Below are positions 2,047 to 26,385 of a stretch of DNA of 41,584 nt, in pieces (position 1 is the first letter of the stretch; every line of letters starts with the position of its first letter). The notes below the pieces were generated by a model. That model did no database searches. It had not been told where the DNA came from and was given only the letters and a program-made list of their open reading frames with translations. Origin of the DNA: a virus. Lineage: Duplodnaviria > Caudoviricetes. The stretch is taken from the IMG/VR virus record IMGVR_UViG_3300037782_000169, positions 1-41,584 of that record, one strand, 5' to 3'. A program made the position numbers and the translations under genes.

Positions 2047-2075
2047 TTTAGATCACGCGCGTTATGCCCTATAAT
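2047..2075 (+). promoter_or_regulatory. Probable promoter giving a leaderless ECF sigma mRNA
   Basis: TTTAGA, 17 nt, TATAAT (2070-2075); ATG at 2082. Confidence 0.5.
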
Positions 2076-2081
2076 CACAGG

Positions 2082-2552
2082 ATGACGAGTGGAATACACG
2101 ACTCTTGGTTCGCGTCGGTACTCGGCTCGGAGACTTGGAAGGGCAAGATCCGTGCATCGATCGGACGCAGCCTGCGGCGTGATGTTGATACAGTGGATAT
2201 CCAGTCTGCCTCGATCTTCCGATTACTCAAACGGGATCTGATTCGCATGGGATTGTCCAGGGATGAAGCCAAGCGGCTGCTGTACCTCGAAAGCCAGCGA
2301 GAAGCGATCGACCGTGGTCGCAAGCGCAGCTCGCAGAACCGCATCGAGAACGAGCTCGCGGATATCAAGAGTGAATCGATCCCGCACATCGATCCGATTG
2401 AATACACAGTGGACGAGACGGACAGCATGATCCTCAAGATGCTCGGCGCCGGTCACACGAATGCCGAAGTCGCACGGCGGACCGGGTTGTCGGAGTCCGC
2501 GATCTCGAGCAGGATCCATCGGCTCAAGAAGAAACACAAGACTGGGACATGA
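2082..2552 (+). CDS. ECF-type sigma factor-like protein (degenerate region 2, region 4 HTH)
   Basis: DTVDIQSASIFRLL (region 2-like), GHTNAEVARRTGLSESAISSRIHRLK HTH; ATGA overlap with the kinase gene. Confidence 0.72.
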   Translation: MTSGIHDSWFASVLGSETWKGKIRASIGRSLRRDVDTVDIQSASIFRLLKRDLIRMGLSRDEAKRLLYLESQREAIDRGRKRSSQNRIENELADIKSESIPHIDPIEYTVDETDSMILKMLGAGHTNAEVARRTGLSESAISSRIHRLKKKHKTGT

Positions 2553-4402
2553 TCATGAGTTACTTTTCTCAGCTCGAACAATGCCCCTGCACGATCGGCG
2601 ATCTTGTGCGGGTCTTCGATGGGTGCAAGCCGCACCAGGACGCGGAGATCGCCGACTCGCTGGCGCTCGCATTCAGCAAGAACCCATCGCTGAGCATGAT
2701 GGATGTCGCGTCGGTCATCCCGCGCCTCACGACCATGCCCGAGTCCTCGGAGATCTGCATCAAGCACATGATGTACGGGCACCCCGAATCGGTCACAGCC
2801 GACGAACTCTGCAAGCAGTTCCCTGAGATCTCCGAGCGGATCACACTCATCGACACGCTGTACAACAATCTCGCGGTCGTCGCGAGCAGCAAGGAGGACG
2901 AGGAGACGCTGCCCCGTGCGTTTGGCTCGAAGCTGAACAACGGCGTCCAGCGATACCAGCTCACGGAGAAGATCGGCAGCGGCTCGCAGGGCGTCGTGTA
3001 CAGGGCGACGGACCTCATGTTCGAGACGCGCCCACAGGTCGCGGTCAAGATCTTCCGCACGCCCGGTGTGCGCGTCGCAGAAGCGAACGCGACATTCCTC
3101 TCCAAGCATCCGGGCGTCGTCGAAATACTCGAGCACGGGAGCGTCGAGGGACAGGGCTACGCCGTGTACGAACTGCTCGATGGCGAGGGGCTGGACACCT
3201 TCATGCCGGTCAATCCTCAGCTCGACTGGCGCGACAAGGTGAAGATCATCCTGCGCGTGTGCGAGACTGTGGTGAAGGTGCACGCCTGCGGCATCCTGCA
3301 TCGCGATATCAAGCCCAAGAACATCATGATGACCGAGAGCCGCGGCCCGGTGCTCACGGACTTCGGCGTCGCGATCGAGCGTTCGTATTCCTCGAGCGAT
3401 CTGCCAGGTGGATCGGTGTGCTTCGCAGCGCCCGAGCAGTTCAACGATCGAGCGACACCCGCGTCCGATGTGTACGGACTCGCCGGCGTGCTCTACTGGA
3501 TGATCACGCGGCACCCGCCAAACAGCGAGAGCCCGGAGATCGCGGTCCAGAACCTCAAAGCCAGGAAGCGTCCGGTGACGCACGACATGCGTTGCCCCGA
3601 CCGACTCAAGGCTGTGCTCGATCGCGCGCTTGACCCGGACCAGTTCAATCGAACATCGAGCGCGGCAGAGTTCGCGGACGATCTCCGCCGTGTGCTCGCG
3701 CACCGACCGATCAACTGGATGGACAGCTCGGCGTTCGCGCGGACAAAGCTCATGATCCGTCGGAGCCCCCTGCCGATTGCTGCCTGCATCGGTGCTGTGC
3801 TGCTCGTCGGCGCCGGGTACATCGCACAGAATCATCGCGAGCAGCAGAGGGCGGACGAGCTCATGAGCGGGCTCGCCAGCGTCGAGTCTGATCGCGATTC
3901 GATCCAGGAGCAGCTGTCGGCGGAGATCGAGCGGCTCATCGCTGAGAAGGAAAAGAAGGACAAGATCATCGAGGGGATGAACTATTACGCGAAGCTGGCA
4001 TCGGAGCGGATGAACTCGCTGGCGATGAGTCATTTGGTCAGGCCCGGTGTGGATCCTCAAGAAGCGCTCAAGATCGGGCTGTACCTGGAGGAGCTCTATG
4101 CTGCCGTCCCTGGGATGCGTGAGGCCGACCTGGACCAGCAGCTGCGCATGGCACAGGAGGCGGTCGTCGCGATGCCCGATGACACGCGCCCGGAGGATCT
4201 GGCGACAGCGCACATGACCGTCGCTCGGATCGCGCAGCTCGCAGACAGTCTCGAGTACATGGGCGAGCAAATAGCGCACTGGACCGCAGCGAGGGATCTC
4301 TGGGCCGAGATCCTGCCAGCCGATGCCCCGATCCTCGCTCGTCTGGATCGCTACTCGATCGAGGCGGGTCGTGCGGCTTCCGTGGACACCGCCGAGCCCT
4401 GA
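2549..4402 (+). CDS. Hanks-type Ser/Thr protein kinase with a TM helix and helical C-terminal domain
   Basis: GSGSQG, VAVK, HRDIKPKN, TDFG, APEQ, SDVYGLA motifs; hydrophobic PLPIAACIGAVLLVGAGYI segment. Confidence 0.95.
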   Translation: MIMSYFSQLEQCPCTIGDLVRVFDGCKPHQDAEIADSLALAFSKNPSLSMMDVASVIPRLTTMPESSEICIKHMMYGHPESVTADELCKQFPEISERITLIDTLYNNLAVVASSKEDEETLPRAFGSKLNNGVQRYQLTEKIGSGSQGVVYRATDLMFETRPQVAVKIFRTPGVRVAEANATFLSKHPGVVEILEHGSVEGQGYAVYELLDGEGLDTFMPVNPQLDWRDKVKIILRVCETVVKVHACGILHRDIKPKNIMMTESRGPVLTDFGVAIERSYSSSDLPGGSVCFAAPEQFNDRATPASDVYGLAGVLYWMITRHPPNSESPEIAVQNLKARKRPVTHDMRCPDRLKAVLDRALDPDQFNRTSSAAEFADDLRRVLAHRPINWMDSSAFARTKLMIRRSPLPIAACIGAVLLVGAGYIAQNHREQQRADELMSGLASVESDRDSIQEQLSAEIERLIAEKEKKDKIIEGMNYYAKLASERMNSLAMSHLVRPGVDPQEALKIGLYLEELYAAVPGMREADLDQQLRMAQEAVVAMPDDTRPEDLATAHMTVARIAQLADSLEYMGEQIAHWTAARDLWAEILPADAPILARLDRYSIEAGRAASVDTAEP

Positions 4403-4476: not shown

Positions 4477-4513
4477 GCTGCCCCTCCATCGTTTGGAGGG
4501 GCGGTTTTTTTTT
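4477..4513 (+). terminator. Rho-independent terminator after the sigma-kinase operon
   Basis: GCTGCCCCTCCA-TCGTT-TGGAGGGGCGGT followed by a T-run. Confidence 0.85.
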
Positions 4514-4871: not shown

Positions 4872-4904
4872 GTTGGTAGGACACCATCAACCCCGATGGA
4901 GTCC
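4872..4904 (+). promoter_or_regulatory. AGGAC-loop hairpin / SD-sequestering switch (CsrA-type site 1)
   Basis: TGGT-AGGAC-ACCA, or alternatively GGAC.CCATC (4879-4888) pairing with GATGG.GTCC (4895-4904) over the GGAG SD. Confidence 0.6.
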
Positions 4905-4907
4905 CCC

Positions 4908-5189
4908 ATGCGCTGGCCCGCCGAGCTGATCGAACTGTTCAACAACAACCGCGACCGCGTCACACAGCTTGTGAGCCGCGGCGTGTATGTCGTGATGTCC
5001 TATGTGCTCGGACGCATCACGGTGGCGCCGCCGGACGCGGATTCCACGATCAAGGACAACGCCGATCTGATCGCCGCCGGCATCGTCGGTGTGCTCGCTG
5101 TCGCGCTCGACCTCTGGCTGCACCGCAAGAAGCGGGGCGGCGTCATCGAAGACAACCCCGAAAAAGTGAAAACCAAGGAGAAATCGTGA
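4908..5189 (+). CDS. Small membrane protein, holin-like
   Basis: Two hydrophobic segments and a charged C-terminus (HRKKR...EKVKTKEKS); first gene of the late operon. Confidence 0.55.
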   Translation: MRWPAELIELFNNNRDRVTQLVSRGVYVVMSYVLGRITVAPPDADSTIKDNADLIAAGIVGVLAVALDLWLHRKKRGGVIEDNPEKVKTKEKS

Positions 5190-5767
5190 TGAAAACGACC
5201 ACGCTATCGCTCTGTCTGCTCCCGATCCTGCTGCTCGCTCTCGGTGGATGCACCGCGACGATGCCCTCGACCTCGAGCTCGTTCGTCGCTCCGGATGGGA
5301 CGCTCGACACGAACAACGGGCAGAACGCACAGTTCTGGGCAACCGGCGACGGACAGACGGGCGCCGCACAGCTCGACTCGGGTGTGATCAGCTCCGATGT
5401 CACCAACTGGCAGGGTACCGGGCTCAGCAACATCCTCGCGCTCACGAAGAACGGCGCCCAGGTCAAGAACTCGGGCGACCTGACCGCCGACACGCTCAGC
5501 ATCCAGTTCGGCGAGCCATACGCCGACGGTGACGGGCAGACGATCGTGCCGATCCAGTCGATCGAGATCGCGGGGCTCGTGAACAATGTGTCCGCGCCGA
5601 TCGATTCGCTGACGAGTCAGGTCGGTCTCTGGGTGTCGGTGCTCGCCGAGATCAGCGAGGACCAGCGTGACCAGGTGATCGCCGCGCTCGAGCGTGACAA
5701 GGTCATCACACAAGAGACCGCCGGCCTCGTGCGGGCGGCTCTGGAAGCAGTAAGCCCCGCGCCATAA
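5189..5767 (+). CDS. Lipoprotein (possibly lysis/spanin-related)
   Basis: Signal peptide II with lipobox LALGG-C; AAGGAG SD. Confidence 0.7.
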   Translation: MKTTTLSLCLLPILLLALGGCTATMPSTSSSFVAPDGTLDTNNGQNAQFWATGDGQTGAAQLDSGVISSDVTNWQGTGLSNILALTKNGAQVKNSGDLTADTLSIQFGEPYADGDGQTIVPIQSIEIAGLVNNVSAPIDSLTSQVGLWVSVLAEISEDQRDQVIAALERDKVITQETAGLVRAALEAVSPAP

Positions 5768-5776
5768 ACCAACTCG

Positions 5777-5810
5777 CGCCTGCCCTCGGAATACGGGGGT
5801 GGGTGTTTTT
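5777..5810 (+). terminator. Possible terminator/attenuator hairpin
   Basis: CGCCTGCCCTCG-GAATA-CGGGGGTGGGTG followed by TTTTT; many G-U pairs. Confidence 0.45.
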
Positions 5811-5829
5811 CTGTGAACGGAGCCCATGC

Positions 5830-6393
5830 TTGATCTCGCACACCATCCAAACGCATCCAGACCTCGAGGGGGTGGGGCTCGCAGAGTTCCTCGACTTCTA
5901 CTGGAAGCACTCCGTCGATGGCGCTGCGCTCGTGGACAAGAACAATCGTTGGGTCTCGCCGAATCCGAAGATCTGCTCACTTCTCGGGCATCCCGCGAGC
6001 AAGCTCGAACAAATGACCTGGATGGATGTCACCATCGAGCCGGATCGCAAGGAAGATCTCGACGCTGTTCGCGCCGTGATCGCCGGCGAGATCAGTCACT
6101 ATGTGATGGACAAGACCTACATCACGCGGATGGGCAACCAGATCCGTGCGCGCCTCACCGTGTACCCGATCCGCACGCCCACAGAGGACTTTGGGATGTT
6201 CCTCTCGCAGATCCAGGAGATCGACGGCGTGCCGGTGGTCGCCGAGGACGAGCTCCGCGTCGTGTGGAGATTCGCGGACAAGCACAAGAAGGCACTCGTC
6301 GTGTTCCTCGTCATGTGGGCGTTCGCCGGCGGCACATTCGTCGAGTCGATCCCCGATGCAATCGCGTTCATAGCCGGGCAGTTTGGAGGCTGA
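5830..6393 (+). CDS. Stand-alone PAS-domain protein with a C-terminal TM helix
   Basis: PAS S-box pattern (SVDGAALVD..NPKICSLLGHPASKL..WMDVT.EPD..KTYITRMGNQI); TM LVVFLVMWAFAGG; TTG start chosen from the GGAG SD. Confidence 0.8.
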   Translation: MISHTIQTHPDLEGVGLAEFLDFYWKHSVDGAALVDKNNRWVSPNPKICSLLGHPASKLEQMTWMDVTIEPDRKEDLDAVRAVIAGEISHYVMDKTYITRMGNQIRARLTVYPIRTPTEDFGMFLSQIQEIDGVPVVAEDELRVVWRFADKHKKALVVFLVMWAFAGGTFVESIPDAIAFIAGQFGG

Positions 6394-6397
6394 AACC

Positions 6398-8269
6398 ATG
6401 ACCGCGCCGTCGTTCACGCTCAACACCATCAAGCCGACCACGCTCATGGGCACCGTCAATGTCGGTGTGCATGTCAACATGGACACGCTCACGACCGGAG
6501 ACGACACGCCCAAACACAAAGCAGTGTTCTGGTGGTATCTCACGGCTCGCACAGGCTCCAGCCTCGACTCGATCCCCGATCGTCACCGCTACGCACTCGA
6601 TCGACGGCTCGGGACCGCCGCGGGCATCGTCAATCTCGCGGGGCGCGTGGTCAACACGCTCGTGGACCTGCTCGGTGCTGCATCAGGACGGGCGCGAACG
6701 CTTATCACCGGCTTCTCGCACTCGTATGTGCTCACACCCGGCGACTGGACCGTGCACTGCGTCGCGATGAACGAGGGTGGGGAGACGACGGAAGTGACAG
6801 AGGACATCTCGGTGTCGTCTGCGGCGTATACGACCAACACGCTCGCGACATCGGGCGGCGATCACGACAACCTCGAGGACGCGTTCAGCTGGATCAACGG
6901 CGGCGACGCACGAAAGCTCATCATCGACAACGATTTCGACGGCACAGCCGACACCTTCCTGCAGCTGCAGCGCAACAACCTGCTGGTGACGACGACCGAT
7001 CCGGACTCCGCGACGAAACCAAAGATCCGTCACAACGCGACCACCGGCAACACAACGCGTCTGCTCGAAGCGCTGCAGGGTTTCGAGTGCATCATCGTCG
7101 AGGGACTCGAGTTCAAGGGCTCGACGCGTTCGGCGGCGAACAACACCATGGCCTGGAGATTCCGGGGTGACAACTGCGCGTTGATCGGCTGTTCTTGCCC
7201 GGACGATCCGGACAGCGAATCGGCGTACTTCCCCAAATCGTTCTACTTCGACACCAACAGTCAGGCGATCAACGCGAATCTGCTGCTCAACTGCGACTCC
7301 AAGGGCTCGGGCGGCGGCACCGGGAACTACACGATCGCGACCGCCGGCACCAACACGGACACGATGAGTCATGTGTACGGCGGCGACTACGAGGAATCGG
7401 CGAACGAATCGATCTACCGCACGACGACCTCCAACGCGGCGCAGTACCCGAAGAACCTGCTGGGGTATTACAACAACACGGAGTCGTCGAGCAAGTCGTG
7501 CATCCGCTACACGAAGGTGGATTGGGGGGACATTGTCGATGTCTACTGCATCGACGGAGATCTCTGGATCGGTTCGGCAACCGGCGCGCAGAGCACGCTC
7601 CAGGTCAACGGCGTCGCTGTGCGTGGTGGGTGGTTTATCGGCGTGAGCTCGATCGGCAGCAATGTGTCTGTCAAGGACGCTGCGCAGAATGTGGTGTTCC
7701 TGAACTGTCGCATCGGCGCGGCGGGCATCGCGATGGGCACGGGCACACAGGGCGCCGATCACAACGCCAACGACAACATCTCGGTGATCAACTGCACGAT
7801 CGAGGGCATCCTCAACTCGGGTGGACGCTCGGACGCGGGATCAACAACCGGGTGCGAGATCATCGGCTGCATCATCAACGGCGATATCGACATCGTCGCG
7901 AGCCTGTTCACCGCCAACGGCGTGAAGGACAATGTGCTCGGCGGATCCGTGCAGCTCGACGGTGTGAACGAGGAGGATCCGGCGACGCTCAACGCCAGCA
8001 GCATCGGTCTGAACAATGTCGCTGGTCCTGTGACGCTCGGCGACAACCTCTATCCGAGCACGGATGAGACGGTCACCCGCGTCGGCGCGAACCAATCGGA
8101 TATGTGGGGCTACAGCCGCGCGGCAACAACGCAGGTCGGTGCGGTCGGTGCGCTCGTCGAGGATCCGGGTGAGTCATCAGGGGGCAGCGGCAGCGGCGGC
8201 GGCAGCTCGTCGAGTGGTCGCGGGCGCCGCGGTCGTGCACGAGCACGCAGATACAGGAGAATCACATGA
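6398..8269 (+). CDS. Right-handed beta-helix protein (tailspike/depolymerase-like) with Gly/Ser linker and Arg-rich C-tail
   Basis: Asn/Gly/Thr-rich repeats (IIVEGLEF, VVFLNCRI, ISVINCTI, EIIGCII). Confidence 0.6.
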   Translation: MTAPSFTLNTIKPTTLMGTVNVGVHVNMDTLTTGDDTPKHKAVFWWYLTARTGSSLDSIPDRHRYALDRRLGTAAGIVNLAGRVVNTLVDLLGAASGRARTLITGFSHSYVLTPGDWTVHCVAMNEGGETTEVTEDISVSSAAYTTNTLATSGGDHDNLEDAFSWINGGDARKLIIDNDFDGTADTFLQLQRNNLLVTTTDPDSATKPKIRHNATTGNTTRLLEALQGFECIIVEGLEFKGSTRSAANNTMAWRFRGDNCALIGCSCPDDPDSESAYFPKSFYFDTNSQAINANLLLNCDSKGSGGGTGNYTIATAGTNTDTMSHVYGGDYEESANESIYRTTTSNAAQYPKNLLGYYNNTESSSKSCIRYTKVDWGDIVDVYCIDGDLWIGSATGAQSTLQVNGVAVRGGWFIGVSSIGSNVSVKDAAQNVVFLNCRIGAAGIAMGTGTQGADHNANDNISVINCTIEGILNSGGRSDAGSTTGCEIIGCIINGDIDIVASLFTANGVKDNVLGGSVQLDGVNEEDPATLNASSIGLNNVAGPVTLGDNLYPSTDETVTRVGANQSDMWGYSRAATTQVGAVGALVEDPGESSGGSGSGGGSSSSGRGRRGRARARRYRRIT

Positions 8270-9069
8270 GCATCCATCCGATCATCACCAGCGCCGTGAC
8301 GCCGTGTATCCTGCTCTGCCTGGTCCACAACTCCCCCGAGGAGATGAAGCACCACGAGACGATCAACGAAGCGATCGCTGAGTCGCCGCTCGCGCCGTTC
8401 GTCAAGGACCGCGTGACGCAGGTCAACGGCGGGTACACCACGCCCACGCCGCTGATCCTCAAGCGAACCGAGCTTCTGCTCGCCGACGACCCGGACTATC
8501 CGGAGACGGTGTTTCCTTCGCTGTGCAGGCGGCGATACGACGAGCAGAAGGGTGGGTACGCCTACTTCAACTACGAGCCCGAGAGCGGCGTGCGTTCCGA
8601 TCGCTTCGACGCGTGCGTGCGGCCGTACACGACCGCCGAGCTCAGCTTCACGGCACGCTGCGTGAGTCAGATGCGGAGACTGGATCCGACGCGCAAGCTC
8701 GGGATCTGGAACTGCCCGCACCTGATCAGCAACGCGGACTGGGACGCGGCGCGGATGATCCGCGGGGTGTCCTACATCAACTGGTCGATCTATAACGCGT
8801 ACCACGCGGATCCCATGCGTGCGATCTACGACTACGGCAAGATCGATCGCGAGTTTGATCACGAGGTCAGCATTGCGATCAAGCCCACATTCGGAACCGA
8901 GTGGGTCGATACGCAGACCGCGATCAACTTCGGTCGTGTGATCGGTCACGCAGCTCGTGAGCGCGGCGGCTCGGGGATGCTCTATCTGCCTGCTGGACTG
9001 TTCAAGGACGGCGTGCCTCCGCAGTTCAATGCCTGGCTGGGTGGGCTTGCAGAGGGGCTTGCTGCATGA
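8266..9069 (+). CDS. Hypothetical protein
   Basis: ATGA-coupled on both sides, AGGAG SD, typical codon usage; no recognised motif. Confidence 0.7.
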   Translation: MSIHPIITSAVTPCILLCLVHNSPEEMKHHETINEAIAESPLAPFVKDRVTQVNGGYTTPTPLILKRTELLLADDPDYPETVFPSLCRRRYDEQKGGYAYFNYEPESGVRSDRFDACVRPYTTAELSFTARCVSQMRRLDPTRKLGIWNCPHLISNADWDAARMIRGVSYINWSIYNAYHADPMRAIYDYGKIDREFDHEVSIAIKPTFGTEWVDTQTAINFGRVIGHAARERGGSGMLYLPAGLFKDGVPPQFNAWLGGLAEGLAA

Positions 9070-11138
9070 TCCAGACCGCTCTCGCAATCCTCGCACTGGC
9101 TGTGTTCCCGCCGAGTTTCAATCCATCAGCACCCATCGAAGAAATCCGTCAACAGGTCCGAAGCTGGACCACTGCAAAGGACAAAGCCATGACCGCAACA
9201 CTCATCCAAGCACCCGATGCCGAGACAGTTCCGGACGGGACCACAGCGACCGCTGCAAACTCGGGGCTCGAGGGTCTCGATGAAACAGGGACCTGGGAGA
9301 CACTGCCCGACGGACGACGGTACATCAAGAAGCCTGCGGGCGCGTCCATGACGCTCAAGCTCCTCGATGCGTCAACCATCGACGCGGCAACGCACTTCGC
9401 GTATCAGCTGCCGATCCAGTACCTGCTCGCCGAGGGCGAGGACTGGCCGGCGGACGATTCGCACTTCTTCATGAACATCAACTCGGACGGCACGCAGCTG
9501 CGTGTGCTGCATCGTGCGAATCCGGCTTGGGAGGGGCTTCAGGTGCAGCTCCAGGACTTCGACAACCTCGAAGGATCTCAAGTCACGCGACCCAACGGCA
9601 AGACCGTCGAGCAGGAGGAGATCGATCACGGCGCGTACTTCTTCCACGACGCAAGCGGATTCCTCGGATACACACTCGACGGGCAGGTGATCGAGCATGT
9701 GGACGGCGCGGATGTCGCGGCGGTGACTTCGATGGAGCGTTTCGGATGGCTCACCCCGATCGACGACGCGAACATCGAGGCCCGCATCATCTTCCCGATC
9801 AAGTATTGGACCGACGACAGCTATCAGAGCGAGATGGTCCCCGATCGCTCTGAGGACAGCGCGTACGGACACAAGGCACGCTGGACGGATCAGATTACTC
9901 CAACGATCGGGCCGTTCGAGACGACAAGCGGCACTGTCAACTACACCAAGTACGCGACGGGCGGCATCCGACCCGATCGTCAGCGTGCGGTTGCCTCGGG
10001 TGGTGACGCGACGATCGAGCTCCGCGATGGGCATGAGTTCGGACAGCTCCAGACCTTTGCCGACGGGCGCGCTGCGCTCGTGCTGCCGCATTCATATCTG
10101 ACAAGCGGGAAGTCAGCGCGTTTCCGTGCGGGCAAGACTGTTGTGGATGATGTCATCGATCTGCTGTTCGATGGGACGAGCGGGACAGCCGGGGCCCGTG
10201 AGATCAAGATCGGCGGCGTCGCGACCGGGTTGACCTACGACCAGGCTGATCGTTATCAGCTGATCATCATCTTCGACGAGACACCCGGAAAGAGTGCGCT
10301 CATTCTGCAGAACCTGTCCGAGGACTCCAATAGCGTCCGGCGTCAGAGCGTGGTCGCGTGGGAGGGTGTTGGCGAGATCCCCGAGATCAACAAGATCACG
10401 ATCGACCTGACTGGCGCCGATGCGGAGTTCGAGGGTCCGCTCAACCCTGACGGCGTCGATATCATCATCACTTCGTCGTACAACTGCACGGAGACCACGA
10501 TCAGCGGTGAAGCTCCGATCCAGTCCAAGAGCCGAATCAGCAACGGATGGAACGCGTACCCCAATCCGGGCAGCCGTCGCGACACAGGCATCTGGTCCTA
10601 CAACCCGCACGCTCGATCGGGTCACGGGCTCACGCATATGGTCGCTTCGTTCGGTGGCGACTACGCGGACTTCGTGCATCTGCGCGGTGTGCGTCTAGCG
10701 TTCATTGAGTGGCAGCTGAACAACGACGCAAACATCAACACGATCATGGGTGTGTTCGAGCCGATGACTCGGGCTGCGATCGACGCGCAGATGCGGATCC
10801 TGTACTGCACGGCGATCCCTGTGCCGACGACTGGCGATACACCCGAGTACACCGAGGCGTTCCAGGCGCAGCAGCGGACGCTCAACAAGCGGGGCAAGAC
10901 CTTCCTCGAGCGCATCCAGAAGAACGGGCTGATCGAGATCGCGGATGTCGCGCGTCTGTACACGAATAGCGAGGGCGTCGCTGCGTTCTACAACCCACCT
11001 GCTGACGATGTGCACTTCGATCCGGACGGCGACGAGCTCTATCCGCAGAAGGTCGTGAGCACGATCAAGACGCTCCCGGGGCTCAAGCACGCAGGCCGGC
11101 GCCGTGTTCGTCGATCGGGTTCCCGCCGGCGATTGTGA
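9066..11138 (+). CDS. Large protein with beta-rich N-terminal part, C-terminal SGNH/GDSL-hydrolase-like domain and Arg-rich tail
   Basis: NPHARSG, QLNND and DDVHFDPDG (DxxH) blocks; alternative start ATG 9189 with AAGGA SD. Confidence 0.6.
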   Translation: MIQTALAILALAVFPPSFNPSAPIEEIRQQVRSWTTAKDKAMTATLIQAPDAETVPDGTTATAANSGLEGLDETGTWETLPDGRRYIKKPAGASMTLKLLDASTIDAATHFAYQLPIQYLLAEGEDWPADDSHFFMNINSDGTQLRVLHRANPAWEGLQVQLQDFDNLEGSQVTRPNGKTVEQEEIDHGAYFFHDASGFLGYTLDGQVIEHVDGADVAAVTSMERFGWLTPIDDANIEARIIFPIKYWTDDSYQSEMVPDRSEDSAYGHKARWTDQITPTIGPFETTSGTVNYTKYATGGIRPDRQRAVASGGDATIELRDGHEFGQLQTFADGRAALVLPHSYLTSGKSARFRAGKTVVDDVIDLLFDGTSGTAGAREIKIGGVATGLTYDQADRYQLIIIFDETPGKSALILQNLSEDSNSVRRQSVVAWEGVGEIPEINKITIDLTGADAEFEGPLNPDGVDIIITSSYNCTETTISGEAPIQSKSRISNGWNAYPNPGSRRDTGIWSYNPHARSGHGLTHMVASFGGDYADFVHLRGVRLAFIEWQLNNDANINTIMGVFEPMTRAAIDAQMRILYCTAIPVPTTGDTPEYTEAFQAQQRTLNKRGKTFLERIQKNGLIEIADVARLYTNSEGVAAFYNPPADDVHFDPDGDELYPQKVVSTIKTLPGLKHAGRRRVRRSGSRRRL

Positions 11139-11147
11139 GGTGCGTCA

Positions 11148-11645
11148 TTGGCGTTCGATCCCGATGTTTTCGACGAGGTCTGCGCGGCTGTGATGGACGG
11201 CGGGCTGATCAAGAACCTTCTGGGTCAGGGACGCCCGGAGGCTTGGCCGTCGAAGCGCACCTGGTACACCTGGGTGGCGAGCGAGAAGCTGATCGAGGAG
11301 CACGATGTGCGCGCGAAGTTCGATTTCGCGCTCGATGTTCGCACGCAGGGGTGGGCGGAGGAGATCATCGAGATCGCGGACAATGCCGGTGTGCTCGTGG
11401 AAGTTGAGCGATCGGACGGTTCAGTGTTCTCAACCAAGGAGATCACGAAGGAGTCAGTCTCAATGGCCGCGAACCAATGCAAGGTGCGCATGTGGGCGGT
11501 CGAGAAGTGGATGCCGCGGAAGTTCGGCAAGCTCGTGAGCGACAAGGACGACGGCAACGACCGACGGACGAACCTCAAGGTTGTCGAGATGTATCCGGAC
11601 ACGACACCGGAGCAGGTCGCCGGCGAGGGGGCGAGTGATGGGTGA
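11148..11645 (+). CDS. terS: Terminase small subunit
   Basis: AEEIIEIADN...RMWAVEKWMPRKFG pattern of Sf6-type TerS; directly upstream of terL. Confidence 0.8.
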   Translation: MAFDPDVFDEVCAAVMDGGLIKNLLGQGRPEAWPSKRTWYTWVASEKLIEEHDVRAKFDFALDVRTQGWAEEIIEIADNAGVLVEVERSDGSVFSTKEITKESVSMAANQCKVRMWAVEKWMPRKFGKLVSDKDDGNDRRTNLKVVEMYPDTTPEQVAGEGASDG

Positions 11646-13173
11646 ACGCAAGTTCCAGCTCGTCGGGCCGTACGCGGATATCTACCGCGAGCTCATGAGC
11701 CATGATCCGGACTGGCGAGCTCCGGAGATCGGCGAGGACGAGGATCTCGATGAGGATCTGCCCTTCTACGAATACTCACTCGAAGGCCCGGCGGGAACGG
11801 GCAAGACCTTCTTCGAGGGTGTGCTGCTCGAGGATCTGCACGCGCGATACCCGCGATTCCGTTCGGTGGTCATCCGCAAGACACGCGTCTCGCTGAGCGA
11901 TTCATGGATGCAGGTGTTCGAGGACGATGTGCTCGGCCCCGAGCACCCGATGCTCCGCAAGGGTCCGAGCCGGGCGCACAGGACCGAGTACAGCTGGGAT
12001 GTTCGCCAGGGCCAATCGGTGACGCGGATCGCGGGTATGGACAACCCGACGCGTCTGTTCTCGACACAGTACGATCTCGCGCTTGTCGTCGAGGGCATCG
12101 AGTTCAACGAGGATGACTACCAATCTCTGTTCCGCGCGATGCGGAACAATGGCGCTCCGTTCAAGGTGGTCATCAGCGACACGAACCCCGGGAACATCAA
12201 TCACTTCCTGAACCGTCGTCCGGATCGCCCGGGCTCGACCATGAAACGCGTGCTCACGCGGCACCATCACAATCCGGCGTACTTCAACCCCCGCACGGGC
12301 AAGATGACCGCGCGCGGGCGCCAGTACATGAAGATCCTGAACCAGCTCTCGGGGGTGATGCGCAAGCGGCTGCTGCTCGGGCAGTGGTGTTCGGCTGAGG
12401 GCGCGATCTTCGAGCACTTCAATCGTGATGTGCATGTGTTCGATCCGGGTGATCCGGGACCGGGCAAGCCGTTCGGTGTGAACTGCCCGGACTACGAATA
12501 CTTCATCGCGGGCATCGATTTCGGCTGGCACGACTGTAAGTGCCTCCAGGTCTGGGGTGTCACGAGCGATCGGGACACCGATATGCTCGCGGAGTGGTAC
12601 GGCACGCGCGTCCCGCTTGAGAACCTCGCGAAGTGGACGATCGCGGCGCACAAAGAGTTTGATTTCGTGCGTTGCGTCGCGGACCACGAACCCGAGTCGA
12701 TCGAGTACCTGAACGACAAGCTGGGTTGGCGGGGCGGTCGGAATGGCTCCAGTCTCGTGATGAAGGCGCAGAAGGGCAAGGGGAGCGTAAAGCCGCGACT
12801 CGAGCTCGTGATGGATCTCCTCGGGAACAACCCGGAGACCGATCTGCCGACCAAGATCCGATTCAGCAGCAGGGCGCAGCGCTACAAGTGTCCGTATCTT
12901 GAGGCCGCGGGTCTCCCCCAGGGGGTGGTTGACGAGATACCCGGATATGTGTGGGCGGAGCAGAAGGAAGACAGGCCGGCAAAGAATGAGCCGGACCCGG
13001 GTTCGATCGATCATGGCTGCGACACGACGGGCTATGTCCAGACAGAGATCTGGAAGACTGATTTCCGCACCAAGAAAAACACGCTCAAGCCCGAGGATGT
13101 CTTCAGCGGCAAGGCTTCATACACCATGACCGCCGAGGAGTTCGAGGAATATGTCGATGAGTATGCAGACTGA
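11638..13173 (+). CDS. terL: Terminase large subunit
   Basis: Walker A EGPAGTGKT, IRKT, VVEGIE, DTNP coupling motif, nuclease GIDFG and DHGCD. Confidence 0.95.
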   Translation: MGERKFQLVGPYADIYRELMSHDPDWRAPEIGEDEDLDEDLPFYEYSLEGPAGTGKTFFEGVLLEDLHARYPRFRSVVIRKTRVSLSDSWMQVFEDDVLGPEHPMLRKGPSRAHRTEYSWDVRQGQSVTRIAGMDNPTRLFSTQYDLALVVEGIEFNEDDYQSLFRAMRNNGAPFKVVISDTNPGNINHFLNRRPDRPGSTMKRVLTRHHHNPAYFNPRTGKMTARGRQYMKILNQLSGVMRKRLLLGQWCSAEGAIFEHFNRDVHVFDPGDPGPGKPFGVNCPDYEYFIAGIDFGWHDCKCLQVWGVTSDRDTDMLAEWYGTRVPLENLAKWTIAAHKEFDFVRCVADHEPESIEYLNDKLGWRGGRNGSSLVMKAQKGKGSVKPRLELVMDLLGNNPETDLPTKIRFSSRAQRYKCPYLEAAGLPQGVVDEIPGYVWAEQKEDRPAKNEPDPGSIDHGCDTTGYVQTEIWKTDFRTKKNTLKPEDVFSGKASYTMTAEEFEEYVDEYAD

Positions 13174-13182
13174 GCGGATCGG

Positions 13183-13246
13183 TGGTATGATTGAGTAGCG
13201 AGTACACACAGGCAGGACGCCATAGGATCAAGGACGAAGCGCTGTG
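13183..13246 (+). promoter_or_regulatory. Extended -10 promoter and GGA-rich leader of the csrA-like gene (CsrA-type site 2)
   Basis: TG-G-TATGAT (13183-13191); GGC-AGGAC-GCC hairpin (13211-13221) and further GGA at 13225 and 13232, the last in the SD. Confidence 0.6.
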
Positions 13247-13594
13247 TATAAAACGAAACTCGCACCGGATGAATCCGTTTGTGTTCGCATTGACGGAACA
13301 AGAACATTCGTCAAAGCGAAGCTGACCAAGAGCTCGCAGAGCTCCAAGATCGAGCTCGCGATCGAAGCCCCGAACAGTGTAACGATCGAGCGGAACCCGA
13401 AAGCGGGCGAGGCTCATCTCTGGCCTGATCACGGACGCAAGAATCGTGAAGCCGAAGCGCTGCGGAGCCGCGAGAAAGCGGAGCAGAAGCGCAAGCGTGA
13501 AGAGCGTGATCGGAACGAAGTGAACCAATCCCCAAGCGGGCAAGACGCCACAAGCACCAGCGAGGTGACAAGTGGCTCTGAGTCAGAAACCTGA
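13244..13594 (+). CDS. Divergent CsrA/RsmA-like RNA-binding protein with a charged C-terminal extension
   Basis: DESVCV...KIELAIEAPNSVTIER aligns by eye with CsrA GETLMI...QVRIGVNAPKEVSVHR, including the R44-equivalent; beta-1 strand divergent; GTG start. Confidence 0.65.
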   Translation: MYKTKLAPDESVCVRIDGTRTFVKAKLTKSSQSSKIELAIEAPNSVTIERNPKAGEAHLWPDHGRKNREAEALRSREKAEQKRKREERDRNEVNQSPSGQDATSTSEVTSGSESET

Positions 13595-15368
13595 TAAGCT
13601 CTGGCGCGAGGTACGCCGCGCGATCGATGACCGCGATGATGTGCTCAAGGGATTCGACAAGGCGATCCGTCGCATGCACGGATCCGGCTACGGCAGCGAA
13701 ACCGACGGCGAAGAAACGACCGTGAATCATGCAGTGGCGTGGCTCAGTGTCATGCTGCCGAAGATGATTCATCGGAACCCGAAGTCCATCGTGCGGACAC
13801 GTCGGGCGATCGATGGGCAGCAGAGCGAAGTTGAGCAGGCGGCGGACTCCATCCAGGCGTTCTTGAATGTGTGGGTCAAATCGGTCGGGCTTGCCAAGAC
13901 GCTCAAGCTCTGCGCACGCGACTACTCGTTCCACTGGTGCGCCGCGATCGTGACGCGGAGGAAGCACGCGGGCGATCCGACACAAGACACGGAAACCGAG
14001 CGGTGGCTGCCCGAGGTTCAGCGTGTACCGCTCTGGCGTTTAGTAATCGATCCCTACTGCGAGTGCCTGGAGCAAGCGCGGTATGTCGGTCATGTGTGGC
14101 ACGCGGACAAAGAAGACCTAGTCGAGATCGCGAAGAACGCCGACGAGGATGATGGATGGGTGCTCGAAGCGATCGAGGCATCGGAGCCGGGCGAGAGTTC
14201 GGTGCTCAACGATGAGCGTGACGAGAACAGCCGCACGGTTGATCGCGAGGAGCTCGTCTGTCTCGACCTGTGGGTGCCTGAGAAACTCCACGACGAGCAG
14301 GTCGGTCCGGAGGACGGATTCCACGGCACGATCCTGACGATGAGCATGAACGCGGAGGAGGAGAAGCTTGCGTTTATCCGCAAGCCGCGTCCGTACTACG
14401 GACCCCCATGTGGACCATACGCGGTTGGTGGGTATCTCAATGTGCCGAAGAAAGTCTGGCCGCTCGGACCGCTCGCTGTCACACACGGACACGAGGATCT
14501 ACTGCGGAGGATGACCGATCACGCGAACAAGGCATGTGCGGAATACCGCAAGGTGATGTTCGTTCCGATGGGAACAGGCGCTGAGGAAGCCGCGAAGAAG
14601 GCGGCGGTCGGAAACAACATCATCATCCCTGTTCGGGGTCTCGCTTCCGATGCGGCGCCCGTCACGCTCGAGATCGGCGGGCTGACCGATCAGCAGATCA
14701 AGCAGATGTCGCACGCTGAGCGTCAGCTGTCGCTCATGAGCGGGCTCGACGCCGCGCAGCAAGGAGAGGTCAGCGGCGACGGCACCGCGACGGAGCACGC
14801 GATCGCGGACTCTGCGATGCAGACTCGGAGCGGCCATATCGTGGACAACTTCCATGAGTTCGTGAACGCGATCCTGAAAAAATCCGCGTGGTACGGATTC
14901 CATGATGAGCAGGTCCGGCTTGAGCTCAGCGAGGATATCGAGGGACTGGAGGGCATGGAGTCTCCAGAGTTTGTGGGTGGTCCTGGTGGGCTCGACTCCA
15001 GGGCGTTCGACGCGATGAGCATCGATATCGAAGCGATGAGCATGGAGCGGACGAGCGATGCGCTGCATCAGCGCCGGATGCTGCAGGCAATGCAGATCAT
15101 GGTGCAGCTTGCGCCGGTGATCAGGCAGTTCCCGGAATGGAAATGGAAGCAGATTCTGGGATTCCTCGGCGACGCGCTGAACATCCCCGAGCTTGACAGC
15201 ATGGTGGACTTCGATATGGCGTCTCAGCTCATGAATGTCCCGGTCGGTGGGCAGGAACAGCAGCCTGCGATCGGGATCGAGACCGGATTCGGAAACGACA
15301 CGCGTGAGGCACGCGAAGTGGTTGGGCGCATCGCGGGCGCTGCGTCCGGTGTGCAGGGGGTTGCGTGA
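13572..15368 (+). CDS. Portal protein
   Basis: 598 aa, located between terL and scaffold/capsid; SGL..AQQG...TATE motif of podoviral portals. Confidence 0.85.
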   Translation: MALSQKPDKLWREVRRAIDDRDDVLKGFDKAIRRMHGSGYGSETDGEETTVNHAVAWLSVMLPKMIHRNPKSIVRTRRAIDGQQSEVEQAADSIQAFLNVWVKSVGLAKTLKLCARDYSFHWCAAIVTRRKHAGDPTQDTETERWLPEVQRVPLWRLVIDPYCECLEQARYVGHVWHADKEDLVEIAKNADEDDGWVLEAIEASEPGESSVLNDERDENSRTVDREELVCLDLWVPEKLHDEQVGPEDGFHGTILTMSMNAEEEKLAFIRKPRPYYGPPCGPYAVGGYLNVPKKVWPLGPLAVTHGHEDLLRRMTDHANKACAEYRKVMFVPMGTGAEEAAKKAAVGNNIIIPVRGLASDAAPVTLEIGGLTDQQIKQMSHAERQLSLMSGLDAAQQGEVSGDGTATEHAIADSAMQTRSGHIVDNFHEFVNAILKKSAWYGFHDEQVRLELSEDIEGLEGMESPEFVGGPGGLDSRAFDAMSIDIEAMSMERTSDALHQRRMLQAMQIMVQLAPVIRQFPEWKWKQILGFLGDALNIPELDSMVDFDMASQLMNVPVGGQEQQPAIGIETGFGNDTREAREVVGRIAGAASGVQGVA

Positions 15369-15595
15369 TGATTCGAACGATGCTCGCTTGTGCTGGCACG
15401 ACTGAACCTGTGAAAGTGCGCGGGTGCGCGTATCGCAGGAATGATCCCAAGCCAGATATGTGGGAGATCATCAAACGCGCGCATGAGGCAATCAAGTTTG
15501 ATTCGCTCGATCCGAGCGAGGTTCGGATGTGGTTCAAAGGTAGATTTGTGCCCGTCGATCAGGTTGTCAAGGAGTTTGCCAATGCCGGAATATGA
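15365..15595 (+). CDS. Hypothetical protein
   Basis: Overlap-coupled to the portal gene and the next gene. Confidence 0.55.
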   Translation: MMIRTMLACAGTTEPVKVRGCAYRRNDPKPDMWEIIKRAHEAIKFDSLDPSEVRMWFKGRFVPVDQVVKEFANAGI

Positions 15596-15893
15596 GTTCT
15601 TCGACGAGGACGGGAACCACGAGACTGTGTTTTTCCCGATGTCACAGGCGCCGGCGATCGGTGAGCTGGTCGAGCACGAGGGACGGGTGCTGCGCCGGGT
15701 CGCTTCGATGCCAGGCGTGAACATGGGATTCCGTCCGTTTGCGAGCTACTCGCTGCCCAAGAACGATCCCAACGCGCGGGAGTTTGATTCCGCGGGGCGT
15801 CCGTGCTTCAACACAGAGCGATCCGTGCGCGAGTTCATGGCACGCAACAACGACAAGCCCGGAGCAGAAAAACTCGGCTGGAAGGGTGACTAG
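15582..15893 (+). CDS. FmdB-like (MPxYE) small protein lacking the Zn-binding cysteines
   Basis: MPEYEFFDEDGNHETVFFPMSQAP...LRRVASMP; AAGGAG SD. Confidence 0.6.
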   Translation: MPEYEFFDEDGNHETVFFPMSQAPAIGELVEHEGRVLRRVASMPGVNMGFRPFASYSLPKNDPNAREFDSAGRPCFNTERSVREFMARNNDKPGAEKLGWKGD

Positions 15894-15934
15894 GACAACG
15901 ATTTCGAGTACCCTTATTGCACAACACGACACGC

Positions 15935-15977
15935 GGCAGGACGCTCAAACGATCAAGGAAGATCACAATGAGCGACC
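15935..15977 (+). promoter_or_regulatory. AGGAC hairpin / start-codon-sequestering switch (CsrA-type site 3)
   Basis: GGC-AGGAC-GCT; GG.CGCTCA pairs with TGAGCG.CC over the ATG; inner GATC-AAGGAA-GATC hairpin. Confidence 0.6.
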
Positions 15978-16999
15978 AAGCCAACAACGACACAACCCCA
16001 GAAACTCCCACCAACGAGGTCGAGACAACGACCGACGCGGCTGTCGAATCGAACGACACGCCCGAGATCGATCCTGTTGACGCGGTGATGGACGAGATCC
16101 TCGACGGCGACACGGACTTCGAGGACGAGGAGCCTGTCGCGCCCAAGGCCGACAAGAAGGGCAAGGAAGCCGAAGCGAAATCCGACGACGCCAAGGACGG
16201 CGAGACCAAGGACGGCGAGGACAGCACGGACGCTGATTGGGCTGCCGCGACTTCTGCATTGATCTCGATGGGCATGAGCGCCGACGAAATCGCGGCGATG
16301 CCAAAGGATCTGGTGCTCAAGATGGGAGCTCGTCTTGCTGCGGATGCTGGTCAGAGTTCTGCCGGATCGGATGATCCAGAGGCCGAAGCCGAGTCCGAGG
16401 ACTCAGCAGACAAACAGCCAAAGGCAAAGCCGGAAGCGAAGAAGCCAGCGGTCGAAGCCGACGCTGAATCCGTGGACCTGGATTCGATCGGTGAGGAGAT
16501 TGTCGCGAGTCTGATCGAGGACGGCGGATTCGACGAGACCGAGAGCAAGGCGATCAGTGGCGCCGTGACCAAGGCGATCGGCAAGATCCAGGGATCGCTC
16601 GGATCGGGATTCGATGCTGACCGTTTCGCGAACATCGAGCGCACGGTGCAGGCGATGGAAGCGATCCAGACCCGACGGATGATCGACGACGAATCGAGCC
16701 GGCTCGCAGATATCTACCCCGAGATCGACGCCGAGGGTGGACGGGAGAAGCTCGAAGCGAAGGCCGGCGAGCTCTACCAGCAGGGCGTGAAGTTCAAGGA
16801 TGTTGGCGAGCTCGTGCGCGCCGCTGCACTCACGCTCTGGGGCGCGAACCGCACGGCGGAGATCAAGGAAGCAACGAAGAAGGTCAACAAACTCAAGGCC
16901 AACGGGACCACGAGTTCCGGCAAGCCAGTCTCACAGGACGACGGACCCAAGGACGCATTCGATGCCGCGTTTGACGAGGCATATGAGGCGTCTCGCTGA
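15968..16999 (+). CDS. Capsid scaffolding protein
   Basis: Very acidic, low-complexity, helical; directly before the major capsid gene. Confidence 0.75.
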   Translation: MSDQANNDTTPETPTNEVETTTDAAVESNDTPEIDPVDAVMDEILDGDTDFEDEEPVAPKADKKGKEAEAKSDDAKDGETKDGEDSTDADWAAATSALISMGMSADEIAAMPKDLVLKMGARLAADAGQSSAGSDDPEAEAESEDSADKQPKAKPEAKKPAVEADAESVDLDSIGEEIVASLIEDGGFDETESKAISGAVTKAIGKIQGSLGSGFDADRFANIERTVQAMEAIQTRRMIDDESSRLADIYPEIDAEGGREKLEAKAGELYQQGVKFKDVGELVRAAALTLWGANRTAEIKEATKKVNKLKANGTTSSGKPVSQDDGPKDAFDAAFDEAYEASR

Positions 17000-17033
17000 G
17001 ACTGACTCGCCCCCGCGTGCGGGGTGAACAACG

Positions 17034-17072
17034 AAACCGTGGCAGGACGCTCACCGTTTGGAAGGAGCGTCC
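17034..17072 (+). promoter_or_regulatory. AGGAC hairpin / SD-sequestering switch (CsrA-type site 4)
   Basis: AAAC.GTGGC-AGGAC-GC.CAC.GTTT, or alternatively a perfect 8-bp stem GGACGCTC (17045-17052) / GAGCGTCC (17065-17072) over the AAGGAG SD. Confidence 0.65.
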
Positions 17073-17075
17073 GAC

Positions 17076-18281
17076 ATGGATGTTATTGAGCTCTATAACC
17101 GGACTACAGAGTCCACTTCGGTCGCGTTTGACAGCGGCCCGAAGAAGTTCGTCAACGATATCGCCAAGCAGAACTACATCGCCGATCACCTGCTCGCGGG
17201 CAAGGGCGACAAGGAGATCTACGCGGGCGGACCCCGGATCAAAGACCGCTTGCTGCTCGAAGAGCGCAAGGCGCTGATCCGCGCACGGCCCGGGGTGAAG
17301 CGCGAGATCAGCAACCCGACCAGCCATGTGAACCACAGCCTGCACTGGGCGTTCTATGTGGGCGATCTGCGCTGGGACGAGGTTGAGATCGCGATGAATG
17401 TCAACCCCACGGGGATGACGAAGTCGGGTCTGAAAACCTATGTCAAGGATGTCATGGAGCAGAAGGAGCAAGACCTTGCTGCGAACATGATCAACGACTT
17501 CGATGATCTGTTCTTCGCGACCCCCGACGCGGCGCTCATGGAGCACCTGGATCAGTCCGACGGCGAGAGCCCGATGATGCTGTCGATCCCGGCGGTGGTC
17601 AACGAGGAGACGAACGGTCTCTACTCGGGCTACGACAACACCAACGGCGACTTCACGACGATCATGGGCATCAACCCAGAGAACTACCCGAACTGGGTGC
17701 CCCGACAGGTTGAGTACGACGCGAGTAGCGCGAACATCGCGGATATGTCGGTCGATGACAACCTGCTCGCTCAGCTCGAACTGCTCTACATGCGTCTCGG
17801 TTTCGAGCCTCCGCGCTCGATCCCGATGGCGAACGGGCACTTCGATCCGAAGACATCGATCGCGAAGCATCTGCTCGTGACTGGTGAGTCCGGCGCAGTT
17901 GCCCATCGCAATGTGCTCCGCTCGAACGGCGATATGTTCTACCCGGACCGTCCGAACGACGGTTCGTTCATGAGCACGCTCGTTGGCGGCGTCCCGGTCG
18001 TCCGCTACCCCGATCTGGATTCGATGAATCTGTACGCTCCGAGCTCGGGCTCAAGCCTGACCACTCAGGACCAAGCGGCGAGCCCTGGAGCACGCTTCTA
18101 CGCGTTGAACATGGACTACATCGTGCCCAAGTTCTACTCCAAGAAGTTCTTCCAGAAGGGCAGGGTCAAGGAGCTCGAAGGCACCGACGGCGCGTTCCGT
18201 CAGGCGGTGCAGGTGTGGTGTCAGACCTGGTACCGCTCGCGCAAGCGTCACGGCATCCTGTATCCGAAGACCCCGTCGTAA
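17076..18281 (+). CDS. Major capsid protein
   Basis: About 400 aa after the scaffold gene; GG..I.., GVPVV..D, YALNMDYI features seen in HK97-fold capsids. Confidence 0.8.
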   Translation: MDVIELYNRTTESTSVAFDSGPKKFVNDIAKQNYIADHLLAGKGDKEIYAGGPRIKDRLLLEERKALIRARPGVKREISNPTSHVNHSLHWAFYVGDLRWDEVEIAMNVNPTGMTKSGLKTYVKDVMEQKEQDLAANMINDFDDLFFATPDAALMEHLDQSDGESPMMLSIPAVVNEETNGLYSGYDNTNGDFTTIMGINPENYPNWVPRQVEYDASSANIADMSVDDNLLAQLELLYMRLGFEPPRSIPMANGHFDPKTSIAKHLLVTGESGAVAHRNVLRSNGDMFYPDRPNDGSFMSTLVGGVPVVRYPDLDSMNLYAPSSGSSLTTQDQAASPGARFYALNMDYIVPKFYSKKFFQKGRVKELEGTDGAFRQAVQVWCQTWYRSRKRHGILYPKTPS

Positions 18282-26375: not shown

Positions 26376-26385
26376 GGAGTTCCAC

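Follow-up and report, generated by a model that had tools for sequence, protein, structure and literature searches.

We identified a likely RNA regulatory element in the leaders of five late genes of a phage recorded as IMGVR_UViG_3300037782_000169. Its gene content indicates a temperate, podovirus-like phage. The stretch analyzed, called the window below, is this entire 41.6-kb virus record, with a G+C content of 62%. The element is a small hairpin with the consensus GY-ARGAY-RC, hereafter the box, which is very probably a real and conserved RNA structure. In predicted folds, the loop or 3' arm of the box pairs instead with the Shine-Dalgarno (SD) sequence or start codon of the gene that follows. 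On balance, our computational predictions lead us to lean toward a late translational switch worked by a CsrA-like protein encoded by the phage itself (open reading frame, ORF, 13244) and activating most of its targets.

A hairpin at fixed distance from late start codons

The boxes lie on the plus strand, as do all features below unless stated otherwise. The leader of the first late gene carries TGGT-AGGAC-ACCA (site 1, 4874..4886), which has a U-A closing pair and whose loop is located 30 nucleotides (nt) before the ATG. Site 2 (GGC-AGGAC-GCC, 13211..13221) lies 30 nt before the GTG of a csrA-like gene, and site 3 (GGC-AAGAC-GCC, 13539-13549, in an element spanning 13539..13579) lies 30 nt before the GTG of the portal gene. 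Site 3 falls within the 3' end of the csrA-like ORF, and its 3' arm pairs with the portal GTG region. Sequence and predicted fold define two GGC-AGGAC-GCU boxes farther downstream. Site 4 (15935-15945; element 15935..15977) is in the leader of the probable scaffold gene, where an outer helix forms with ATGAGCGACC and an inner GAUC-AAGGAA-GAUC hairpin (15952-15965) sits on the SD; site 5 (17041-17051; element 17041..17078) is in the leader of the major capsid gene. The 13-mer GGCAGGACGCTCA is identical at 15935 and 17041, and the stems at both positions consist of merely two Watson-Crick pairs and one G-U pair. Loop-to-start-codon distances in the five leaders are 30, 30, 30, 30 and 32 nt. A preliminary description of this DNA had reported the four hairpins with AGGAC loops, and every string and coordinate proved correct; the list was incomplete in that it lacked the AAGAC loop at 13539.

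The pentamer AGGAC is slightly enriched in the window, with 98 copies against an expectation of 78.6 +/- 9.0 (2 of 100 shuffles reach as many). A stem of at least three pairs is present under six of the 98 copies, and four of these six are the late leaders. The motif GGCARGAYGCY, which was defined post hoc, has five copies when both strands are counted, compared to a mean of 0.29 and a maximum of two in 200 shuffles, and all four sense-strand copies are located 30-32 nt upstream of a late start codon. The minus strand has a GGC-AAGAC-GCC box (1340-1350) located 33 nt upstream of an in-frame integrase GTG (1314) and followed by a helix over that start. This integrase-leader box is not present in the integrase leader of the related G001 phage described below, and is possibly due to chance. 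A blind pattern scan of viral contigs for the box together with ATCAAGGAM returned 15 loci, three known and 12 new; none of the 12 is a recognizable homologous leader, and the short box sequence alone is therefore not a specific marker.

Homologues of the window capsid protein occur in Phycisphaerales assemblies, from which we infer that the host is a planctomycete of this order. Genomes searched for relatives numbered 401 for the order, 301 for the family and 401 for the class, and yielded, besides genome G001, distant capsid relatives only. Three other lineages were retrieved: the prophage of G001 (loci L002 and L028), whose capsid protein is 53% identical; L005/L006, fragments that lack a capsid gene and have a terminase at 51%; and L020, a more distant relative than G001 (capsid profile E 1e-89). 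The near-identical L001 and L003 were not counted separately, and the leader comparison left out the contigs of the close capsid homologues P0002, P0004-P0006, P0008 and P0009.

The preliminary description had made its interpretation depend on conservation of the paired architecture in relatives, and in the G001 phage each of the five orthologous leaders has retained the box. Its first-late leader (L028:17975) reads GGT-AGGAC-ACC, and its portal orthologue has an AGGAC loop and a pairing with the SD. The site 2 box is kept in both L002 and L005, the layout of site 4 is the same in L002, and site 5 is kept in L002. In L005, boxes are found before the csrA-like gene and over the start of terS, with none before the portal gene. 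In L020, the capsid gene is preceded by two GC-AAGAG-GC boxes, and the second pairs GGCCAU with AUGGCC. The spacing from loop to start in seven leaders of relatives is 26-35 nt. Across 13 sites in the window and relatives, the small stem retains its G-C pair in all 13, and its closing pair is C-G in 11 and U-A in two. The loop is AGGAY at 10 of the 13 sites, which corresponds to the CsrA-type A(N)GGAX loop. The invariant GGA of a CsrA-type site is not kept at three sites, which have AGA (the window portal leader and two in L020).

A box in the capsid leader is present in all three lineages carrying the csrA-like gene versus none of 10 more distant capsid relatives. The csrA-like gene was not detected in the eight distant capsid relatives that were scanned, where the loci are partial and the gene divergent, so that it could be missed; the family search missed it even in G001.

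Several further structures accompany the box. In relatives, boxes lie over the terS start codon (L005:284-294) or within the first terS codons (G001, L002:3006-3016), where repression of packaging is possible; none was found at the window terS. A tandem CAAGAGG-CAAGAGG in L020 (14203-14220), far from the start of any long ORF, could be a decoy or could reflect chance. Just 5' of site 5 is a G+C-rich hairpin (17007-17028), and a hairpin with a similar GCGUG-like loop occurs at about 9932-9949 of L002; it is possibly a processing or stabilizing element.

Predicted pairing of the box with initiation regions

The preliminary description had noted that the GGAC arm is complementary to the initiation region in three leaders, and all three helices are present. 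In the first-late leader, 4879-4888 pairs with 4895-4904 and covers the SD (9/10 pairs, with one A-A mismatch); in the scaffold leader, 15939-15947 matches 15969-15977 (8/9); and in the capsid leader, 17045-17052 matches the SD at 17065-17072 (8/8). However, this list of occluded leaders was incomplete, as the csrA-like leader is also occluded in its predicted minimum-energy fold. In such folds the box loop or 3' arm pairs with the SD or start codon in all five window leaders.

With the small hairpin locked, positions -14 to +3 of the window leaders are predicted to open at a cost 4.1-8.7 kcal/mol lower than without the lock. The gain averages 0.7-2.5 in null sequences, in which everything except the box, the SD core and the start codon was shuffled. 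The p values for the five leaders are 0.056, 0.088, 0.008, 0.012 and 0.016 (Fisher combined p 5e-5), so that p<0.05 is reached by three of five window leaders, and by 7 of 12 when relatives are included. This comparison of folds with and without the locked hairpin had been proposed as a check. Cognate pairing between arm and initiation region is also stronger than swapped pairing across 11 leaders (means of -13.6 and -10.1 kcal/mol; permutation p 2e-5).

The first-late helices of the window and the G001 phage share nine pairs, of which six are the same and three are changed on both sides at identical offsets, which in this alignment is true compensation. In the capsid and portal leaders, both the arm sequence and the register of its partner have changed relative to relatives, and the SD or start codon is still covered; on these comparisons we classify the leaders as conserved architecture and not strict covariation. 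The two-state layout, its retention in relatives and the fixed spacing have computational support.

A CsrA-like protein and the proposed direction of regulation

The divergent csrA-like gene (13244..13594) has its CsrA-like domain in the N-terminal ~60 amino acids (aa) and lies between the large terminase and portal genes. It is syntenic in L001-L006, and L002 and L005 have it in the same terminase-portal interval; in L020 the counterpart directly precedes the portal gene. The assignment of ORF 13244 to CsrA in the preliminary description agrees with the best PHROG, Pfam and PDB-sequence matches, all of which are to CsrA and all of which are weak. The PHROG CsrA-like regulator matches at E 0.0048, and Pfam CsrA (PF02599) at 12.9-14.6 bits (E 0.03-0.1), below the 27-bit cut-off. 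The sole PDB-sequence match is CsrA 1t3o (E 0.61). The L020 orthologue (17.9 bits; E 1.7e-4 within its genome) and P0015 (15.5 bits) are likewise below the Pfam cut-off. Profile-profile comparison (hhalign) gives 42% over 19 columns, and all of the remote CsrA matches are restricted to the last two strands. A search with the protein alone matched only itself, and a profile search found 10 proteins, nine of them small homologues; one homologue is encoded seven locus tags away from a homologue of the capsid protein, in a different assembly from Phycisphaerales that includes ACX94C_07675 and ACX94C_07710. In a related strain, six of seven differences in codons 46-61 are at third positions.

CsrA consists of five beta strands followed by a helix. 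The AF2 model of ORF 13244 (pLDDT 87.7) has strands at residues 2-6, 11-16, 19-24, 36-40 and 47-49, and after the fifth a three-residue helical turn and not a full helix; the fold predicted from the single sequence has a pLDDT of 53. In a structure search, the fifth-ranked match was a phage 'Carbon storage regulator' (E 0.47). A CsrA fold is probable for this protein, and the sequence matches are consistent with it but weak.

In the switch that we propose, the loop and 3' arm of the box would hold the SD or start codon in a helix, so that translation stays off. The phage CsrA-like protein would bind the box in its small-hairpin form and free the initiation region. Capture of the box would be at least partly co-transcriptional, because at equilibrium the small hairpin appears too unstable to prevail. 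Once bound, the protein would sit just upstream of the ribosome footprint, and translation of the capsid, portal and first-late genes would rise as the protein accumulates. At high protein levels, a second, SD-embedded hexaloop in the csrA-like and scaffold leaders would provide negative feedback.

This second site is UC-AAGGAC-GA in the csrA-like leader (13228..13237), an ANGGAN hexaloop on the SD that is a candidate autorepression site and is found in the window and the G001 phage, and not in L005. Another SD-embedded UC-AAGGAM-GA hexaloop is present in the scaffold leader (15953), and this string has three copies in the whole window. The box itself is ~22 nt or more upstream of the start codon, and its arm is the occluding strand. 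Such an upstream position is outside the usual ribosome footprint. The window portal leader (AAGAC) has no GGA from the box to the start codon, and the G001 capsid leader has no second GGA. Activation is favored because the single site lies outside the ribosome footprint. The preliminary description had proposed activation of capsid, scaffold and lysis translation. Activation seems the best interpretation for the capsid, portal and first-late leaders, and a uniform activation model is too simple, as the scaffold and csrA-like leaders carry the extra repression-type site. Activation through the upstream box combined with negative feedback at the csrA-like and scaffold genes would fit both sets of evidence.

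The closest parallels to this arrangement are found in two activation systems. In E. coli, CsrA destabilizes an SD-sequestering hairpin in ymdA mRNA and thereby activates translation, and its site BS2 is removed by a GGA-to-AGA mutation (Renda et al. 2020, PMC7492729). As in ymdA, a CsrA-type site overlaps the predicted helix sequestering the SD or start codon in all five window leaders. In ymdA, however, a host global regulator acts on one gene through two GGA sites, whereas the window has a divergent phage-borne protein, five leaders of fixed spacing, mostly one upstream site and AGA-tolerant loops. In phage Mu, translation of mom is activated when the Com protein binds a hairpin loop and opens the adjacent translation-inhibition structure, in which the start codon is held (Nowacka et al. 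2019, PMC6483171). A phage protein acting as an activator at a hairpin loop beside a translation-inhibition structure is predicted for the window as well, although Com is described as a zinc-finger protein with one mRNA target, and the window would combine a CsrA-like fold with a set of head, portal and first-late genes. Because Com and mom work in this way, a protein-triggered RNA switch in a phage is not new, and the earlier suggestion that none had been described was mistaken.

The two kinds of site also resemble characterized ligands of RsmE. RsmZ SL3 is a solved RsmE-binding hairpin with the layout GC-AGGAX-GC (PMC4005645), and the upstream box similarly has a five-nucleotide AGGAX loop closed by C-G and then G-C. 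The second site in the window, an SD-embedded ANGGAX hexaloop on C-G and U-A pairs, resembles the RsmE hexaloop at a ribosome binding site, which is the high-affinity layout; pentaloop sites are bound at low micromolar and a buried GGA at millimolar concentrations (PMC4005645). These RsmE and RsmZ sites are decoy or repression sites, unlike the activation proposed for the window.

The AAGAC and AAGAG loops lack GGA, and the equivalent GGA-to-AGA change removes the E. coli CsrA site; for this reason a phage protein of altered specificity is favored. We tentatively suggest, with less confidence than for the switch as such, that the protein may be an offshoot of CsrA with shifted specificity for ARGAN pentaloops, orthogonal to host CsrA, that acts as a dedicated activator of the virion program and limits itself and the scaffold through the SD site.

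The strongest of the alternatives, although an unlikely one, is that the phage CsrA-like dimer is mainly a repressor. It would bridge the box to the GGA of the SD and cap its own synthesis and that of scaffold and capsid, with the helix setting a low basal rate. CsrA usually represses, and the UC-ANGGAN-GA hexaloop that matches the high-affinity RsmE layout sits on the SD in four of five csrA-like and scaffold leaders of the window and relatives. A further GGA precedes the start in 10 of 12 leaders, and the boxes at the terS start in L005 and in the first terS codons in G001 also point to repression. However, a second GGA that could be bridged is missing from the portal leader of the window and the capsid leader of G001, and the box lies upstream of the usual ribosome footprint. 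In addition, repression does not require the box arm to be the strand covering the SD or start, yet this role is conserved with compensatory change.

It is less probable still that host CsrA is the ligand and ties late translation to the metabolic state of the host. A canonical CsrA is encoded in all 26 host-order genomes searched, often as two paralogues, the C-G-closed AGGAY loops match RsmZ SL3, and the phage protein has lost some basic residues. Against this, the AAGAC and AAGAG loops have no GGA, which argues that host CsrA is not the main ligand, though it may contribute. Moreover, among the lineages compared, the capsid-leader box was found only in those with the phage gene, and the leader of that gene has a box in three of four lineages.

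We regard as doubtful, and somewhat more so than a host ligand, a scheme with no protein at all, in which the helices would slow translation as static or kinetic brakes that give way to upstream ribosomes or through delayed folding, and the box would be a duplicated anti-SD. The portal leader is indeed inside the translated 3' end of ORF 13244, GGAC and GCUC naturally complement purine-rich SD regions, and the small hairpin is hardly populated in predictions. However, no upstream ORF covers the first-late, scaffold or capsid box. Occlusion needs neither the 5' arm (GG-Y) nor the loop, yet both are conserved; in addition, the closing pair switches from C-G to U-A, and the partner region changes where the box does not.

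It is very unlikely that the box acts as DNA, for example as a late promoter element recognized by the sigma-like protein of the phage (2064-2552) at fixed distance from short leaders. The fixed spacing, the near-palindromic GGCA-GGA-TGCC and the Sigma70_r4/HTH protein encoded by the phage would suit such an element. However, G-U and U-A substitutions preserve RNA pairing, gene-specific extensions pair with the initiation region of each gene, no second conserved box was seen upstream, and boxes overlap terS starts in relatives. Finally, chance in a G+C-rich genome, which the post hoc motif and the 12 unmatched loci of the blind scan might suggest, is largely refuted by the fixed spacing at five genes, the conservation of five orthologous leaders and the in-register compensation.

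Several observations weigh against the activating switch. The first group concerns folding. In full window leaders the free small hairpin has P<0.01 and locking it costs 2.9-11 kcal/mol. In simulated elongation it reaches P>=0.8 in four of 12 leaders, ~0.3 in two and <=0.13 in six, and an opening cost of 3-9 kcal/mol is left after locking. As RsmE binds pentaloops at low micromolar and a buried GGA at millimolar concentrations, opening at equilibrium is doubtful. With the small hairpin uphill and pentaloop binding weak, the switch would need co-transcriptional capture, induced fit or a tighter phage protein. The opening gain is nil in the L005 csrA-like leader (p 0.59) and slight in the G001 scaffold leader (p 0.20), and a strain difference at 13239 costs the predicted helix of the csrA-like leader one pair. 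For the arms of the portal, scaffold and csrA-like leaders, 8-11 of 18 other genes offer initiation regions that pair just as well, and genes of this genome without a box reach -19.6 kcal/mol, so that strong predicted occlusion is common. The specific feature is that the occluding strand is supplied by the conserved box.

The second group concerns conservation and the protein. Covariation in relatives, which had been suggested as a check, was found as the three compensatory pairs of the first-late helix, but the score for the small stem itself is not significant (41/500 shuffles). L020 has no box at the portal, scaffold and csrA-like leaders. Three related lineages underlie the evidence for conservation, and because the three box-bearing lineages are the closest kin, the co-occurrence of box and gene amounts to one event. 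Foldseek of the monomer model of ORF 13244 against the PDB returned no CsrA, and a wide aligner ranked RsmN (4kji) ninth (Z 2.8, rmsd 2.9, 42 aligned residues); where the native form is an intertwined dimer, a single-chain model makes a weak search query. By eye, the N-terminal arginines of host CsrA (host R6) are not kept in the ORF 13244 family, and R50, which aligns with host Arg44, is R or K in ~5 of nine homologues. The hexaloops on the SD and the presence of canonical CsrA throughout the host-order genomes, both noted above, count on the same side.

Genome context and implications

The window encodes an integrase, RecT, an exonuclease, a terminase, an SU10-type portal, an adaptor and a giant internal-virion-like protein. 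The gene labels are unevenly supported. The major capsid protein (17076..18281) is supported by an Atlas score of 0.99 and a TM of 0.79, and its homologues match PHROG major head; no cultured phage relative of it was found. The portal protein (13572..15368) is weakly supported (PHROG portal E 1e-4; Pfam SU10_portal E 7e-5). ORF 15968 (15968..16999) has no family match and is probably the scaffold protein, given its position before the capsid gene and its acidity (pI 4.2; 24% D+E). The first late gene (4908..5189) encodes a small hydrophobic protein of 93 aa, 35% identical to the L028:18010 protein. It has no PHROG or family match and a single strong predicted hydrophobic segment, and 'holin' and a role in lysis are candidate assignments.

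Other genes of the window include a sigma-factor and kinase pair, in which a Ser/Thr kinase comes immediately after a Sigma70_r4/HTH protein (2064-4402); with the strong terminator behind it (4477-4505), this pair occupies the interval that separates the integrase from the late genes. One of the first late genes (5803-6393) encodes a PAS-domain protein whose C-terminus is hydrophobic. A protein of 2562 aa (26344-34032) has matches to internal-virion-protein, Zeta_toxin and ART-PolyVal, and is probably a polyvalent-type protein delivered from the virion. Sigma-70-type promoter matches in the window are at chance level (4 vs 3.8), and Rfam gave no match at gathering score. None of 13 listed holders was an RNA run, which has no bearing on expression. 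In the order of the G001 host, 18 of 26 genomes have two canonical CsrA paralogues of distinct types.

Genes resembling csrA were reported in 30 of 2517 phages (PMC7366521), and in phage JC1 the portal (gp45), CsrA (gp47) and capsid (gp48) genes are neighbors (PMC9144972). Like PHROG 8397 and 9500 and JC1 gp47, ORF 13244 is a small csrA-like gene in a head module; unlike them, it belongs to a family that scores under the Pfam cut-off and is found in Phycisphaerales phages. In the available portions of these two papers, phage csrA is a moron acting on the host or of unknown function, and no phage mRNA target is named. PMC8310193 likewise treats it as a moron of unknown benefit, and in the accessible text of PMC12038007 it is merely annotated. 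The system described in the excerpt of PMC13418256, chromosomal csrA-tldR loci, differs from that of the window. We found no paper with a phage CsrA acting on phage late mRNAs, or with several late genes under the control of a phage CsrA-like protein, in a search that had most subscription journals and supplements outside its reach.

The locus described here names concrete phage mRNA targets, a predicted sign of activation and a spacing rule for a phage csrA gene, and what such genes do can be tested with short reporter fusions. If the proposed switch is correct, temperate phages would control the timing of late genes and the stoichiometry of head proteins at the level of translation as well, and capsid and possible lysis genes would stay silent on leaky transcripts. 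The switch would also mean that the specificity of CsrA can be shifted away from GGA, and would provide a compact, orthogonal, protein-operated translation switch. Should the phage protein indeed be an activator of shifted specificity, these phages would possess a self-contained post-transcriptional late switch, which would explain the presence of csrA beside phage head genes.

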